Shown here: piece after piece, positions 20,563 to 41,091 of the stretch
Position numbering within the stretch: position 1 is the first letter of the stretch
Layout: each line of letters begins with the position of its first letter
NCBI GenBank assembly: GCA_044892525.1
Contig: CM097885.1
Span: 10,666,001-10,730,000 of the forward strand
Source: Schmidtea polychroa
Lineage: Eukaryota
Direction of reading: 5' to 3'
DNA length: 64,000 nucleotides
The notes under the pieces: generated by a model
Database searches by the model: none
What the model saw: the letters and a program-made list of their open reading frames with translations, nothing else
Told to the model about the DNA's origin: nothing
Program-made: the position numbers and the translations under genes

Positions 20563-21045
20563 ATGGAATCAACCGGCTACATTACAAAGAGACTCGACAA
20601 ATTCGTAAATTTAACACACAATTCACTACAACGGCTTAATCGCAAAGCAGACCAGTTGATGAAAATCCAAGACGAGATGAGCTTGAATCCAAGACCGCAA
20701 GCTGAGGAAATATGTGTAATGATGAAAATAGCAACACCTAATGCAGAATTGACCACTAAAAGAGTTTATCAAATTCAAAATTTACGATTAGATAATGCCA
20801 AATTTAACATCAAATGGCAGGAGATAATGATGAAAATGGAAACGATCGAAGAGGAAATTAAAGAAGCAATCGAACATCAAGTTAAAGATTTTAGAAAATG
20901 CTTCAGATGCAGAATCAATGAAATACGAGTAATGACGATCCCATGTGGTCATTTATGTTACTGCGAGAATTGCGCAGAGAAAATTAAACGATGCCACGTA
21001 TGCGATACGAACGTTAGAGAGAAAATTGTAATGTACCTCCCGTAA
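20563..21045 (+). CDS. Coiled-coil plus IAP-type C-terminal RING protein (putative E3 ligase), upstream of gag
   Basis: CFRC...PCGHLCYCENC...CHVC RING at the C-terminus. Confidence 0.85.
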   Translation: MESTGYITKRLDKFVNLTHNSLQRLNRKADQLMKIQDEMSLNPRPQAEEICVMMKIATPNAELTTKRVYQIQNLRLDNAKFNIKWQEIMMKMETIEEEIKEAIEHQVKDFRKCFRCRINEIRVMTIPCGHLCYCENCAEKIKRCHVCDTNVREKIVMYLP

Positions 21046-21339
21046 GGAGATGTTGTCAAATAAATTTCTGGTGAATGAATATGAAATAATTAAATTATTA
21101 AATTATATTAAAAATCCATTATAGCAACCGAAAGGTATAAATCATACGATGAACATAGACATATAAAGGACACAAAATACGATAAATAAATAGACAAGCA
21201 ACACAGCAATTAGAACTAAAATCAAAATTGAATGCAGGACTGATCATAGTCGTATGAATGAGCTGATCAATAAGATCAGTACGATTTTTACTTCCAATTT
21301 TCTTTTCTTCCTGTTTTATTAGTTTGGCATAGAGTGATA

Positions 21340-22800
21340 CCATAAGGAGGGGATGACAAGTGAATCGTCCTTACGACACTTGCCCGGATGGGGAAATCCT
21401 GATCACCCTGGCGAGAGAATGTAGTAGGATCCATCGCAAATGTTGGGGAGTTTCTGTCGAGTGACTGATCACCACTTGTGGGAAATGAACCAACGCGATT
21501 ATTATATTTTTGTCTGGGAGACTGGGACTAACTAAAAGGGTGAATAAAAATAGAAAAATAAAATAAAAATTGAAAAACGCGCGCTAAACGTTAAAAATTT
21601 AATCCGAGAGCAGCTGCGGATTTGAAGAAACCGTTTTTGGACTTCAAATCAGATGAGGAATAATGATTTTTCCCTAGCGAGTGATGAGGCACCCGAGTAC
21701 AGCGGCTAACCAGCGGACTGTAGTGTCCAGGAAATTATCAGCCAAGGGACTGATGATGCTGGATCACCCAATACAAAAACCCGGATACCACACCGAGTAT
21801 TGGGCGCATTTTCTTCGAGTTGCTAGCGGGACTTGATACAAAAACCCGGAAGGGTAGCGAGCGAGAGAGACCCAGTTACCTACACCGAGTATCAAGGAGC
21901 CCAGTGAAACGGTTGTGAGATGCGGGTCAACCGGTAAAGGACTCGTACTCAACAGGCAGCCAAGATTGGACCAGTTGTGAGGCGGGAGACCGAGAGTCAA
22001 CTGCATATCCAATTTCCTTTTATCTTCACTAGTCGGGAAATCTGGTTCATCACTTTTGAGAATCAAGATCGAGGCGATTAGGTATTTCCATGTTTTTTTA
22101 AATCCTGATAGATAGGATGTTTTTTCTTCGTGATTATTGCTAGCAGGGGTCGGTACAAAACCCAGATGCACACACCGAGTACCGATAGGCCCAGTGAAAC
22201 GGCGATGAGATTAGGGTTACCGGTATTAGACTCTTTTCAATAAGCGGCCAAGAATTGAGCCAGTTGGGAGGCCTCAGCAGATTAGGAATTTGAGTAGGAG
22301 GAGCCTTGAATTTTTAATTAGTCCGAAAGTCAACTGCCAACTCAATTTAATCGTGGTAGGGACGATAATAGGTGTAAAAACCGAAGGCGTCTGGGGGTTG
22401 AAGAAACCTCATTTAGGGCATTTGAAACCGGTCAGGGACCGAAGACCGCGAATACGGCGTAATGGTGTAAAAGCTCAGGCGTCTAGGAGTCGTAAAAGAC
22501 TTCAATTATGATTAAACCGGCCGGAAGCCGTTGCCGACGCGGAGGTCTAACAAACCAAAACGTTGATGGGTAATAGTAGATTATATGGCGTAACGGTGTA
22601 AAAGCCCAGGCGTCTAGGAGTCGTAAAAGACTTCATGAGATTAAAATGAGTTGATTAAACCGGCCAGGGAGCCGATGGTAATTGAGCGAAATGGTTTAAA
22701 TGAAAATAAGGGAGTTGGTTAAACCGGCCAGGGAGCCGATGGTAAATAAATGTAGATGCAGAGGTCGCGCGAACCAAAGCATCGATGATTAACTATGAAA
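21340..22800 (+). ncRNA. Structured RNA leader with several families of repeated hairpin modules
   Basis: Repeats near 21773/21837/22155, 21900/22190, 22360/22456/22587 and 22511/22656/22719, with compensatory stem changes. Confidence 0.6.
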
Positions 22801-38360: not shown

Positions 38361-39770
38361 ATGCAAAACAAAGCGGAAGAGAACCGGAGAGAAGCAGAGG
38401 AACAAAAGATTAACTATGAGTTGATGAGAAAATATCAAGCCAGGCCGGACGAGTTCGAAGAGAGACTATTATGTGCCGATGCAGCATGTAGAAGATTATT
38501 AATTGGAGCAAGTCAAACTCGATGCGGTTGTAGATTGTGCCGAGGGTGTGATATAAGATTAGCCAAGCTAAAGCGAGAAACTTGTCTAGGATGTGGGGAA
38601 GCATTTAAGTTGGTTCCCACTGGCACGATACCGGATAAAGCAATGAACCGAGAAATTAGAGAAGTAAAAATAAGATGTCCTCAAAGGTCATGCGAATGGA
38701 CAGGTCGAGTAAAGGAGTTAAGAGCTCATACAGACGTATGCGAATATTTAGAATTGGAATGCGAAGCATGTAAGATAAAGTTCTTACGAAAAGAGAAAAT
38801 CAAACATAAAGAAGAATGCGAAGCGCGGTCAGAAAAATGTGAATTTTGCGGAGAAACTGCTAATTGGAGAGAGATTGAAATGGAACATCGAAACGCAGTA
38901 GAAAGACGGATTTGCGACGAATACACAGGGAGATGCCCAAACGAGTGTGGAGAAATTAACAACGTCAGACTAAAAGAACATTGGGAGATATGCACGAGAA
39001 AAGCGATAAAATGCCCAATGGTGACATTCGATTGCAGAGCACAATTACCAGCAGAGGAAATGAAGAAGCATGTGGAAGAGAATACATTCGAACACATGCA
39101 AAAGATGATGAGAGCAATAGAGTTAACAGCAAGGGCAATCGAAGACGTCAAAGACGAACGCAAATCACATAAAATCATGATAAAAGAAATGCTGGGCTCA
39201 CAGGAAAGCTTCGAAAATACGAGAGAAGCCGTAATACAAAGAATGTTGAAATTAGACGACAAATTAGTCGAAGTAACGAAACTACAAACCAAATGGGCTG
39301 AAAAGGAACTGACAACCGAGGAACTACCAATATTACCATACATGTGGAAAATCCAAGGAATAACAGAAATAATGGAGCGAGCAAAGCAAGGAACCCAGAC
39401 AACGATAGTGAGCAAACCATTCTACGTCAAGAAACATGGATACAAGATGAAATTGAGATGGTTTCCAAATGGCGAGGGAAATTTTAAAGATCGGTGCATG
39501 TCCTTATTTATGCAAATCTGTAAAGGAGACTTCGATGACATAATAGTCTGGCCATTCCGACATAAATTAAAAATATCCCTCTTAGGAAGAGAACGGACAC
39601 ACATAACATACTGTCGAGCATCAAGTCCAGCATGGAATAAACCAACTACAGAGGTTAATACCGCGGTAGGAGCAGGAGAATTTATACAGCTATACCAGTT
39701 CAATGAAGGTTCCTACATATTCTTCCTAATCGAACTAGCGGAGGAAGGACTAACAATAGAAATACGATAG
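38361..39770 (+). CDS. Element-encoded intronless TRAF (RING, TRAF zinc fingers, coiled coil, MATH)
   Basis: CGCRLCRGC RING, CPQRSCEW and further zinc fingers, and MATH motifs SKPFYVKKHGYKMKLRWFPNG and WPF. Confidence 0.95.
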   Translation: MQNKAEENRREAEEQKINYELMRKYQARPDEFEERLLCADAACRRLLIGASQTRCGCRLCRGCDIRLAKLKRETCLGCGEAFKLVPTGTIPDKAMNREIREVKIRCPQRSCEWTGRVKELRAHTDVCEYLELECEACKIKFLRKEKIKHKEECEARSEKCEFCGETANWREIEMEHRNAVERRICDEYTGRCPNECGEINNVRLKEHWEICTRKAIKCPMVTFDCRAQLPAEEMKKHVEENTFEHMQKMMRAIELTARAIEDVKDERKSHKIMIKEMLGSQESFENTREAVIQRMLKLDDKLVEVTKLQTKWAEKELTTEELPILPYMWKIQGITEIMERAKQGTQTTIVSKPFYVKKHGYKMKLRWFPNGEGNFKDRCMSLFMQICKGDFDDIIVWPFRHKLKISLLGRERTHITYCRASSPAWNKPTTEVNTAVGAGEFIQLYQFNEGSYIFFLIELAEEGLTIEIR

Positions 39771-39912
39771 GCGGATAGAGAGAAATTGTAAATATTTTGT
39801 AAAACAATGTAAAGTAATTATAAAGTTATTGTATAAAGTAAAGTAACTCACCCAAAACCATAAAAATTAGAAAAAGAAAAAATACAAAAAGAAATGATGA
39901 AATTTATTATAG

Positions 39913-41091
39913 ATGATTAATCAAGAGAAACCGAATATCCGAAAGAAAACGATCACAATGAGAGAGGGAGAGGACGATACGCCATCTAGAGAAAGAGTGA
40001 GAGATGCGGAAGTTAGCAAAACGAAACCAAGTGGTTTCGCATATTATCGGAGAATGGGAAATGATTATAGTTTAGTACATGGAAATTTGAAACAGGGAGA
40101 TAATGAGCAATTCAGATGTGAGAACCAGAGATACCTGTCATTTGAACACCAGACCATTTTCACCAAGGAACAGAGCCGAGCGCTTGCACTCAACGGATCT
40201 TTCTTCTCCGGAAAACCAGAGATACCCGATCAAGTAACGTGTCGTTTCTGTAAAGGGAAATTAGCAGAATGGAAAAAAGGAGAACACCCAAAGGAGGAAC
40301 ATCGTAAACGATTTCCAACTTGTCCATTCGTAATGGGATTTGATGTACACAACAAACTGGAAATCAAATACGAAGCCTTGGAGAAATTGAAAACTGAGGA
40401 CGAAAAAGGAGGGAAAATGACAATCGCGATAACCAGAATCGTTGACGAATATGTCCCAACTTGTGAAGGTGAATTCCTCACGCAAATAGCAGATAACAGA
40501 ATGAAAACGTTCGGGGATGATACGAGAGGACCTGAACTAGCAATAAGAGGATTCTATCTAACGGAAAAGCAAATACTCAAGTGTGAAAGATGCGAAAGTC
40601 AACAGAGATTACCAGAAGAAGGCATCCCAGAAATTAGACATCAAGCATGGTGCCTATATCACAACGAACAAGAAATCGAATATCCAGAAGTACTAATAAC
40701 AGAAGAAGAGGTTGACGAAGTTGTAGACAAGCCCAACATGTGCAGAGCGTTGAAAGCGGCTGGAATAGGCACGACAAGGGCAAAGAAAATGATTAGAGAG
40801 AGACTACAGAAAAACGTACATATACCAACAACAACGTACGATATGATCAGAGCGATAACTCAGTATAGAGAAAAACCTGAAACAAAAACAAAAGAAGAAT
40901 CAATGGTCAAAGCAGCTATCTTACGAGATATCAAATGTACTATGTGTTGGGAGATGAGTGTAGAAGTTATTCATATGCCATGCGGACATTTGATCGCATG
41001 TGCCACATGTAGTAGAAAAGTAAAGGAATGTCCAATGTGTAGACAAAGGATTGCGCAGCGAATCAAAGGATTTCGCTACGCCGATCAATAA
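39913..41091 (+). CDS. Element-encoded inhibitor of apoptosis (two BIR domains, RING)
   Basis: BIR with RYLSF, LALNGSF, CRFC, W, EEHRKRFPTC; a second degenerate BIR; C-terminal CTMC..PCGH..CATC..CPMCR RING. Confidence 0.93.
   Translation: MINQEKPNIRKKTITMREGEDDTPSRERVRDAEVSKTKPSGFAYYRRMGNDYSLVHGNLKQGDNEQFRCENQRYLSFEHQTIFTKEQSRALALNGSFFSGKPEIPDQVTCRFCKGKLAEWKKGEHPKEEHRKRFPTCPFVMGFDVHNKLEIKYEALEKLKTEDEKGGKMTIAITRIVDEYVPTCEGEFLTQIADNRMKTFGDDTRGPELAIRGFYLTEKQILKCERCESQQRLPEEGIPEIRHQAWCLYHNEQEIEYPEVLITEEEVDEVVDKPNMCRALKAAGIGTTRAKKMIRERLQKNVHIPTTTYDMIRAITQYREKPETKTKEESMVKAAILRDIKCTMCWEMSVEVIHMPCGHLIACATCSRKVKECPMCRQRIAQRIKGFRYADQ

Follow-up and report, generated by a model that had tools for sequence, protein, structure and literature searches.

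Burro1 (GYPSM1), a giant Gypsy retroelement of Schmidtea mediterranea (Jurka 2007 and Grohme et al. 2018, as summarised in PMC6431247), is described with a 4,873-amino-acid (aa) open reading frame 1 (ORF1) and with three CCHC knuckles, MATH, ubiquitin (Ubi)/SUMO-like and BCL2-like motifs, an in-frame env, ankyrins and BIR. The same source already suggests that it interferes with apoptosis and ubiquitination in the host. According to a second-hand account (PMC13465017, citing Lee et al., Dev Cell 2026, doi 10.1016/j.devcel.2026.03.001), the Burro1 BIR-RING region protects stem cells from caspase-mediated apoptosis, and Burro elements have expanded in Dugesiidae and Geoplanidae. BURRO1 RNA goes up in differentiated cells on SMEDWI-2 loss (PMC8532177), and the available part of PMC13269885 contains nothing on Burro. 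Here, we analysed 64,000 nucleotides of Schmidtea polychroa DNA (NCBI GenBank assembly GCA_044892525.1, contig CM097885.1, positions 10,666,001 to 10,730,000 of the forward strand; this whole stretch is called the window) and found a giant Burro/GYPSM1-type Gypsy element at 14369-47201, more than 30 kb long with multi-kb long terminal repeats (LTRs). The element is a damaged copy of this already described type, and its captured genes, which are under purifying selection, probably keep alive the host cells that are copying it.

The likeness to Burro1 rests on the published description and not on sequence identity. Both elements exceed 30 kb and combine long LTRs and high copy number with an ORF1 of about 4,800 aa, an in-frame env, accessory ORFs, and MATH, ubiquitin/SUMO-like, BCL2-like, ankyrin and BIR motifs; likewise, the Burro1 B-IAP and the IAP-like protein described here both place BIR and RING on a planarian Gypsy element. 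They differ in that the description available in PMC6431247 names only a MATH motif, whereas the window element has a full TRAF ORF, a RING-only ORF and a ubiquitin-like domain upstream of MATH, and in that the window copy is defective. The idea of a host-control toolkit has been in print since 2007/2019 and the cargo list is published; the window element adds testable detail to a known system, and the surprise is low. Large DNA viruses carry comparable genes against host death and immunity, namely baculovirus IAPs, herpes and pox BCL-2 folds and ankyrin proteins. The same domain types have been captured from hosts here; unlike the viral genes, however, this cargo sits on an inherited retroelement and lies partly inside a polyprotein, and an IkB-like action would be hypothetical. 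The element is one of few inherited retroelements with a virus-like host-control gene set. Two of its features, the nested cargo sets in three families and the acceptor-like AG before accessory starts, are possibly new: no paper that treats selection domain by domain, the nesting of cargo or acceptor sites for Burro elements came up in our literature search, although the primary Burro papers may cover some of these.

A damaged copy of a Burro-type giant retroelement

The long ORFs at 18998-44693 all lie on the plus strand and are flanked by a pair of direct repeats, one at 14369-16522 and the other at 45048-47201, with 8 differences over 2,154 bases. Another natural copy in the same genome carries a 5.6-kb LTR pair (99.7% identical), from which the full extent of the 5' LTR was mapped (Table 1). 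The rest of the 3' LTR is absent from the next 19 kb of the contig past 47201, and because the LTR breaks off there the target duplication is unreadable at the window copy; 4-bp target duplications are present in three other copies. An 18-mer past the 5' LTR may resemble a tRNA-Pro primer site; a tRNA scan came back empty. Pfam searches identified gag knuckles, MATH, an env-like fusion protein, protease (PR), reverse transcriptase (RT), RNase H, integrase (IN) and ankyrins, together with separate RING, TRAF and BIR-RING ORFs. The env region follows gag and precedes protease in the same frame, and a long piece of a natural ORF1 matches Monjiviricetes_fusion (E 5e-68); the ankyrins are in frame with integrase. 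Between PR and RT, where Burro/GYPSM1 elements have a dUTPase-like stretch, is a conserved stretch (dN/dS 0.02) for which Pfam gave no dUTPase match, a profile-profile comparison not having been run.

For comparison we used 18 copies, each covered by a 27-kb stretch, which were the best non-self matches to a non-coding anchor with one small-contig match skipped (hereafter anchored copies). A single open ORF1 from gag to tail, 4,673-4,729 aa long, is present in 4 of the 18. In the window copy, ORF1 is broken about ten times, by stops at 26973, 29502 and 33125 and by frameshifts near 25893, 26065, 27299, 27797, 30620, 36233 and 37222. The stop at 26973 and the frameshift near 27299 isolate the MATH domain in the window copy only: another natural copy has MATH within a gag-containing ORF, and 13 of 150 MATH matches lie in open frames of 2,405-4,791 aa. 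A first-pass annotation of this stretch had described a stand-alone MATH domain at about 26960; the domain itself was correctly identified (it is 46% identical to a host TRAF-like gene), but it is part of ORF1 in other copies.

The LTRs of the window copy are nearly identical, yet its ORF1 carries more breaks than such an age suggests. Possible reasons are that an already defective copy was mobilised or that the LTRs were homogenised. Strand-biased G-to-A hypermutation was considered as a source of the many stops and rejected, with G>A at 97.6 and C>T at 92.4 per 1,000 source bases.

Captured genes under purifying selection

Selection was estimated as a spectrum-corrected dN/dS from variants common to at least two of 24 natural copies (the 18 anchored copies, five from IAP or TRAF matches, and the window copy). 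This revealed purifying selection on every cargo domain (0.03-0.26; Table 1), with P <= 3e-4 versus neutrality for each of RING, the first ubiquitin-like domain, MATH, the BCL-2-like domain, the ankyrins, TRAF and IAP, and with RT (0.00), IN (0.01) and env (0.04) as reference domains. The cargo is also common. At least 105 scored IAP matches at 92-100% (from 3,295 candidates; 9 with stops) and at least 91 scored TRAF matches (12 with stops) were found in match lists that favour intact copies. Among the anchored copies, TRAF, IAP, the ankyrins and the BCL-2-like domain are each reached in 16, the first ubiquitin-like domain in 14, MATH in 13 and RING in 12, the misses being partly due to other DNA inside the 27 kb. 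TRAF and IAP are present in most sampled copies and do not evolve neutrally; two of the conditions under which the first-pass annotation would have given up its proposal of a toolkit against host death or immune signalling thus do not hold.

Purifying selection does not translate into better preservation of inserted copies. Post-insertion breaks number 22 in 47.3 kb of RING, TRAF and IAP and 72 in 213.4 kb of ORF1 (P 0.18; two anchored copies, a07 and a15, ended before TRAF and IAP within their 27 kb and were left out of the break counts for those genes), and preferential keeping of the cargo after insertion was not seen. Because the cargo is under purifying selection yet breaks as fast as ORF1, selection likely acts on the replicating lineage rather than on individual inserted copies. 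For that lineage the cargo is functional, while inserted copies appear to decay evenly. In one family-1 copy, an internal deletion joins TRAF to the BCL-2-like/env part of ORF1 in a single frame of 1,399 codons.

Two related families reside in the same genome as the window family (family 1). A MATH search uncovered family 2, a second giant family of about 30 kb with 3.9-kb LTRs, whose RT and IN are 88% and 82% identical to those of family 1 and which has at least 92 TRAF copies. One whole copy carries RING, ubiquitin-like, BCL-2-like, env, pol, more ankyrins, TRAF and coiled-coil ORFs, without the ORF1 MATH and without BIR; in 7 of 7 copies examined, a coiled-coil ORF directly follows TRAF and there is no BIR-IAP. 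Its cargo homologs are 27-41% identical to those of family 1, in open frames. A Bcl-2 search uncovered family 3, for which one copy (13.6 kb) encodes gag-Bcl-2-env-pol in one 3,053-codon frame plus one 777-codon ORF. Its RT is 50% identical to that of family 1, it has no match to the other cargo, and many copies appeared in the Bcl-2 search; its layout may be ancestral. The cargo is therefore nested over the three families: BCL-2-like in three; RING, ubiquitin-like, ankyrin and TRAF in two; and MATH and BIR-IAP in one. Stepwise gain would be the simple reading of this nesting, and loss could also explain it. The nested sets offer natural comparisons for the role of each gene.

Candidate functions and competing explanations

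The first-pass annotation missed a predicted BCL-2 fold directly before env. A structure model built from five element sequences (pLDDT 69) has a helical bundle round a central hydrophobic helix and a BH2-like motif, as BCL-2 folds do. The first 29 structural matches are all BCL-2-fold proteins (best Z 13.1, rmsd 2.7, 135 residues aligned), the best Foldseek match is MCL-1 (E 5e-3), and a profile of the five sequences matched BCL-xL (E 0.011). The domain precedes env in all three families, and Pfam Bcl-2 is found in family 3 (E 2e-6) and in family 2 (E 0.07). Outside this genome, a search for relatives of the region returned only one spurious repeat protein. The genome also holds at least seven near-identical host Bcl-2-family genes clustered at the end of one contig, and many scattered short Bcl-2-like matches with one internal TAG.

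The second candidate death block is the IAP-like ORF, which the first-pass annotation had read as BIR-BIR-RING. BIR1 is canonical and zinc-binding (E 4e-16), with its ligands kept in 21-22 of 22 copies, and the C-terminal RING is confirmed. BIR2 appears degenerate, a shortened C-C-H-C motif (zf-C3HC, E 0.002) that keeps all four ligands unchanged across the 22 copies compared (dN/dS 0.02); a PDB search with BIR2 gave no BIR match, and its structure model is of low confidence. A structural comparison with the low-confidence model of the IAP gave the UBA of XIAP at a Z of only 3.5. The search for a host IAP donor by BIR was swamped by element copies, and two host BIR-like exons are only 27-32% alike.

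We favour a reading in which the cargo probably blocks host cell death. By analogy with their protein families, the BIR-RING protein would restrain caspases and the BCL-2-fold piece would act at the mitochondrial step, and together they could block death at two steps, countering death from integration damage or env expression. This agrees with the cell-death part of the first-pass annotation's proposal and with the second-hand Burro1 report. TRAF likely acts on its own because family 2 keeps it without a BIR-IAP; it likely works on planarian TRAF-linked stress-kinase signalling rather than on canonical NF-kB. Host TRAF-like genes are reported to support cell survival in a planarian (PMC7586133), and TAK1/p38/JNK components are listed for planarians (PMC7958881). 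Selection on all of these would act while lineages replicate and not on each inserted copy.

The sequence also suggests how the cargo could be expressed. A full-length RNA would yield one polyprotein of about 4,700 aa. A family-1 ORF1 contains 8 instances of a cleavage-like motif, set by eye (shuffle mean 0.38, maximum 3 in 500), with sites after PR, at the RNase H/IN and IN/ankyrin borders and after MATH; a family-2 ORF1 contains 4 (shuffle maximum 3). Since the motif recurs at domain borders, the element protease would likely release the internal cargo, i.e., ubiquitin-like, MATH, BCL-2-like and ankyrin pieces. RING, TRAF, IAP and the other accessory ORFs would instead come from separately spliced RNAs. 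All 6 accessory starts tested in the window have an AG no more than 3 nt from the ATG (1 of 2,000 shuffles), as do all 6 in family 2 (0 of 2,000), and a stricter YAG rule holds at 5 of 7 starts versus a 13% background (P 6e-4). These AGs (20553-20565, 37806-37818, 38351-38363, 39903-39915, 42854-42866 and 43697-43709) follow an AT-rich tract, are kept in all aligned copies and have the same spacing to the ATG at the homologous family-2 ORFs. They are likely splice or trans-splice acceptors and show where to look for cargo-specific RNAs. Contigs of four runs presumed to be RNA cover the stretch, and no joint listed for them falls at a predicted acceptor, with 9 joints and 446 loose ends lying beyond that list. 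AATAAA is often seen 40-80 nt upstream of accessory starts (not compared with chance).

A bolder proposal, which we regard as speculative and on balance unlikely, is that Burro elements grew stepwise from a small gag-BCL2-env-pol element to a genome like that of a complex retrovirus, blocking death in two independent ways, and that host spliced-leader trans-splicing, not ordinary cis-splicing, would resolve an operon-like array of the seven accessory genes, in which every start codon has an acceptor of its own right before it.

Several observations weigh against the cell-survival reading. The IAP is dispensable for spread, since family 2, which lacks a BIR protein, has reached at least 92 copies. 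Within the IAP, whose structure model is poor (pLDDT 43), BIR2 appears degenerate. The BCL-2 fold is a prediction in which only 2 of 5 models were confident; the window sequence alone gave no Bcl-2 match in Pfam or PDB and none in Atlas; and the fold also covers pro-death members and viral proteins of other pathways (BAX, N1L and A52 are among the structural matches). The window copy has private missense changes at 28923 (BCL-2-like) and 40198 (BIR1). The dN/dS values tally shared variants, not independent events, in related copies, and 5 of the 24 copies were picked through IAP or TRAF matches. Finally, the AG and cleavage criteria were set after looking, one family-2 start was picked among several ATGs, and such an AG also precedes 120 of 354 ATGs inside ORF1 (45 with a YAG).

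One alternative is that the cargo serves above all as a kit of ubiquitin ligases and adaptors in the cycle of the element itself, for example by degrading restriction factors or by aiding particle assembly and release, with cell survival secondary. The element does encode three RING ligase-type domains (RING ORF, TRAF and IAP), a MATH adaptor and two ubiquitin-like stretches. The best PDB matches of the RING ORF are the RINGs of cIAP2, cIAP1 and XIAP, in agreement with the IAP-type RING, without BIR, that the first-pass annotation placed at 20563. Its ubiquitin-like domain at about 26325 has modest support: Atlas placed it in ubiquitin clusters (0.91), with 10 of 10 family matches in one clan, while the Pfam match (OTU1_UBXL, E 0.018) is below the cut-off and a PDB sequence search gave no match. 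For the second stretch, Pfam gave no match on the piece tested. The RING-only ORF is found in both giant families and BIR in one, env is as strongly conserved as noted above, and selection follows replication, not residence, all of which would suit a kit of this kind. It leaves unexplained, however, the conserved BIR1 and the presence of the BCL-2 fold in all three families, and it conflicts with the anti-apoptotic IAP reported second-hand for Burro1 (PMC13465017). We consider it unlikely as the main role.

The first-pass annotation had proposed that TRAF and IAP form a TRAF2-cIAP-like complex which, with IkB-like ankyrins, dampens TNF/NF-kB signalling; we judge this to be rather improbable. 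TRAF2 and cIAP bind through BIR1 and the TRAF coiled coil. The window TRAF has the full RING-zinc finger-coiled coil-MATH architecture that had been assigned at 38361 (its MATH is 5 codons shorter than in other copies), it adjoins an IAP ORF with BIR and a C-terminal RING, as in the mammalian TRAF2-cIAP1/2 pair, both ORFs are under selection, and of all solved structures, cIAP RINGs come nearest to the IAP RING. Other observations speak against the proposal. Family 2 carries TRAF without a BIR-IAP in all 7 copies. TRAF matches TRAF1 (72 bits), TRAF3 (67), TRAF5 (61) and TRAF2 (60) about equally in PDB, and a protein search found no TRAF relatives outside this genome. In two trees, with 20 and 13 rows that sample the best host matches and include no named reference, the family-1 and family-2 TRAFs join weakly (91/82, and 81/85 with a long-branch warning), so that the phylogeny against host TRAFs resolved neither a host donor nor a place among host TRAFs. 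The IAP has at most two BIRs, only one of them clear, and about 90 aa between BIR2 and RING in which Pfam found no CARD, and it thus falls outside the cIAP1/2 subtype, which has three BIRs and a CARD before the RING.

The NF-kB part of this proposal is not supported either. The ankyrins after integrase, annotated at about 35200, are genuine; about three repeats are recognised, whereas IkB-like ankyrin proteins have six to seven repeats closest to IkB. Of 75 PDB ankyrin matches, the 60 listed are mostly designed repeats and include no IkB. Clear NF-kB homologs are reportedly difficult to recognise in planarians, and a planarian without a clear one has seven divergent RHD genes (PMC13563047); a Rel-homology search of this genome gave no match, and neither did its controls. 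For a planarian nidovirus ankyrin, action on NF-kB has been proposed by analogy only (10.1101/299776).

Host domestication, i.e., that inserted copies keep the cargo ORFs for a host need while the polyprotein decays, appears very unlikely. It would account for the open RING, TRAF and IAP of the window copy beside some ten ORF1 breaks, and a host benefit has been reported second-hand for Burro1 (PMC13465017), but the contrast within the window copy is not significant (P 0.12), and break rates over 16 anchored copies are 0.31/kb in TRAF, 0.59/kb in IAP and 0.69/kb in RING (12 copies) against 0.34/kb in ORF1. Many redundant copies may nonetheless bring a family-wide host benefit. That the cargo genes are neutral passengers captured from host RNAs, as their lack of introns and the many host TRAF-like genes available for capture might suggest, is refuted by the dN/dS values, which lie far under 1 for each cargo domain, provided that the shared-variant method has no serious bias, and their persistence in family 2 in open frames leaves this explanation with hardly any probability.

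Element features and neighbouring sequence

Table 1 Features of the giant element in the window (positions are those of the 64,000-nucleotide stretch)
Position	Strand	Feature	dN/dS	Evidence and remarks
14369..19902	+	5' LTR, 5,534 bp, TG...CA		end mapped from another natural copy's LTR pair
18998..19498	+	166-aa coiled-coil ORF within 5' LTR		weak homolog in family-2 LTR (31%, E 5e-5)
19911..19928	+	primer-binding-site-like 18-mer, 8 nt past LTR		18-mer also follows the LTR of a further family-1 copy and of family 2
20563..21045	+	accessory ORF: coiled coil and IAP-type C-terminal RING, without BIR	0.15	zf-C3HC4_3 E 1e-10; homolog in family 2
23732..37290	+	ORF1 polyprotein region: gag (3 CCHC), ubiquitin-like, MATH, ubiquitin-like, BCL-2-like, env, PR, RT, RNase H, IN, ankyrins, tail		
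26316..26590	+	ubiquitin-like domain 1 (within ORF1)	0.06	41% to family 2
26950..27330	+	MATH/TRAF-C domain (within ORF1; split in window copy)	0.26	Pfam E 9e-23
27740..27960	+	second ubiquitin-like stretch	0.03	assigned by eye; position fits published Ubi2/SUMO-like motif (PMC6431247)
28551..28980	+	predicted BCL-2 fold, directly before env	0.08	structure model
29064..30830	+	env-like fusion glycoprotein region, between gag and pol	0.04	Monjiviricetes_fusion
31400..34500	+	PR, RT, RNase H and IN, arranged as in Gypsy	0.00-0.02	Pfam
35200..35650	+	ankyrin repeats, about 3 recognised, in ORF1 after integrase	0.08	Ank_2 E 1e-9; also in family 2
37816..38271	+	151-aa accessory ORF	0.10	homolog in family 2
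38361..39770	+	full-length TRAF (RING-zinc fingers-coiled coil-MATH), intronless, open	0.21	at least 91 copies
39913..41091	+	IAP-like ORF: BIR-degenerate BIR-helical (UBA-like?)-RING, open	0.22	at least 105 copies
41170..44693	+	three more accessory ORFs, of which two are coiled-coil and broken in this copy and the third, 328 aa long with hydrophobic ends, is open	0.19-0.41	
45048..47201	+	3' LTR, truncated after 2,154 bp		8 differences from 5' LTR

The rest of the window is rich in other mobile elements. Upstream of the giant element are the end of a Polinton/adintovirus-like element (1-4514), with a double-jelly-roll capsid, an integrase with a PLA2-like domain and an inverted repeat at 4274-4514, and an ordinary 4.7-kb Gypsy element on the plus strand (7349-12054) with identical 153-bp LTRs. 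Right past the 3' LTR breakpoint lies a Penelope-like fragment with RT and GIY-YIG on the minus strand (47646-49445). A BEL/Pao element on the minus strand (55686-63431) has 936-bp repeats (99.9%) and a ubiquitin domain before gag (Pfam E 3e-22). Just outside the giant element, at 52155-53620, is a host TRAF-like gene of several exons with a duplicate (about 93%) some 19 kb further on; it is part of a large host TRAF expansion and distant from the element TRAF.

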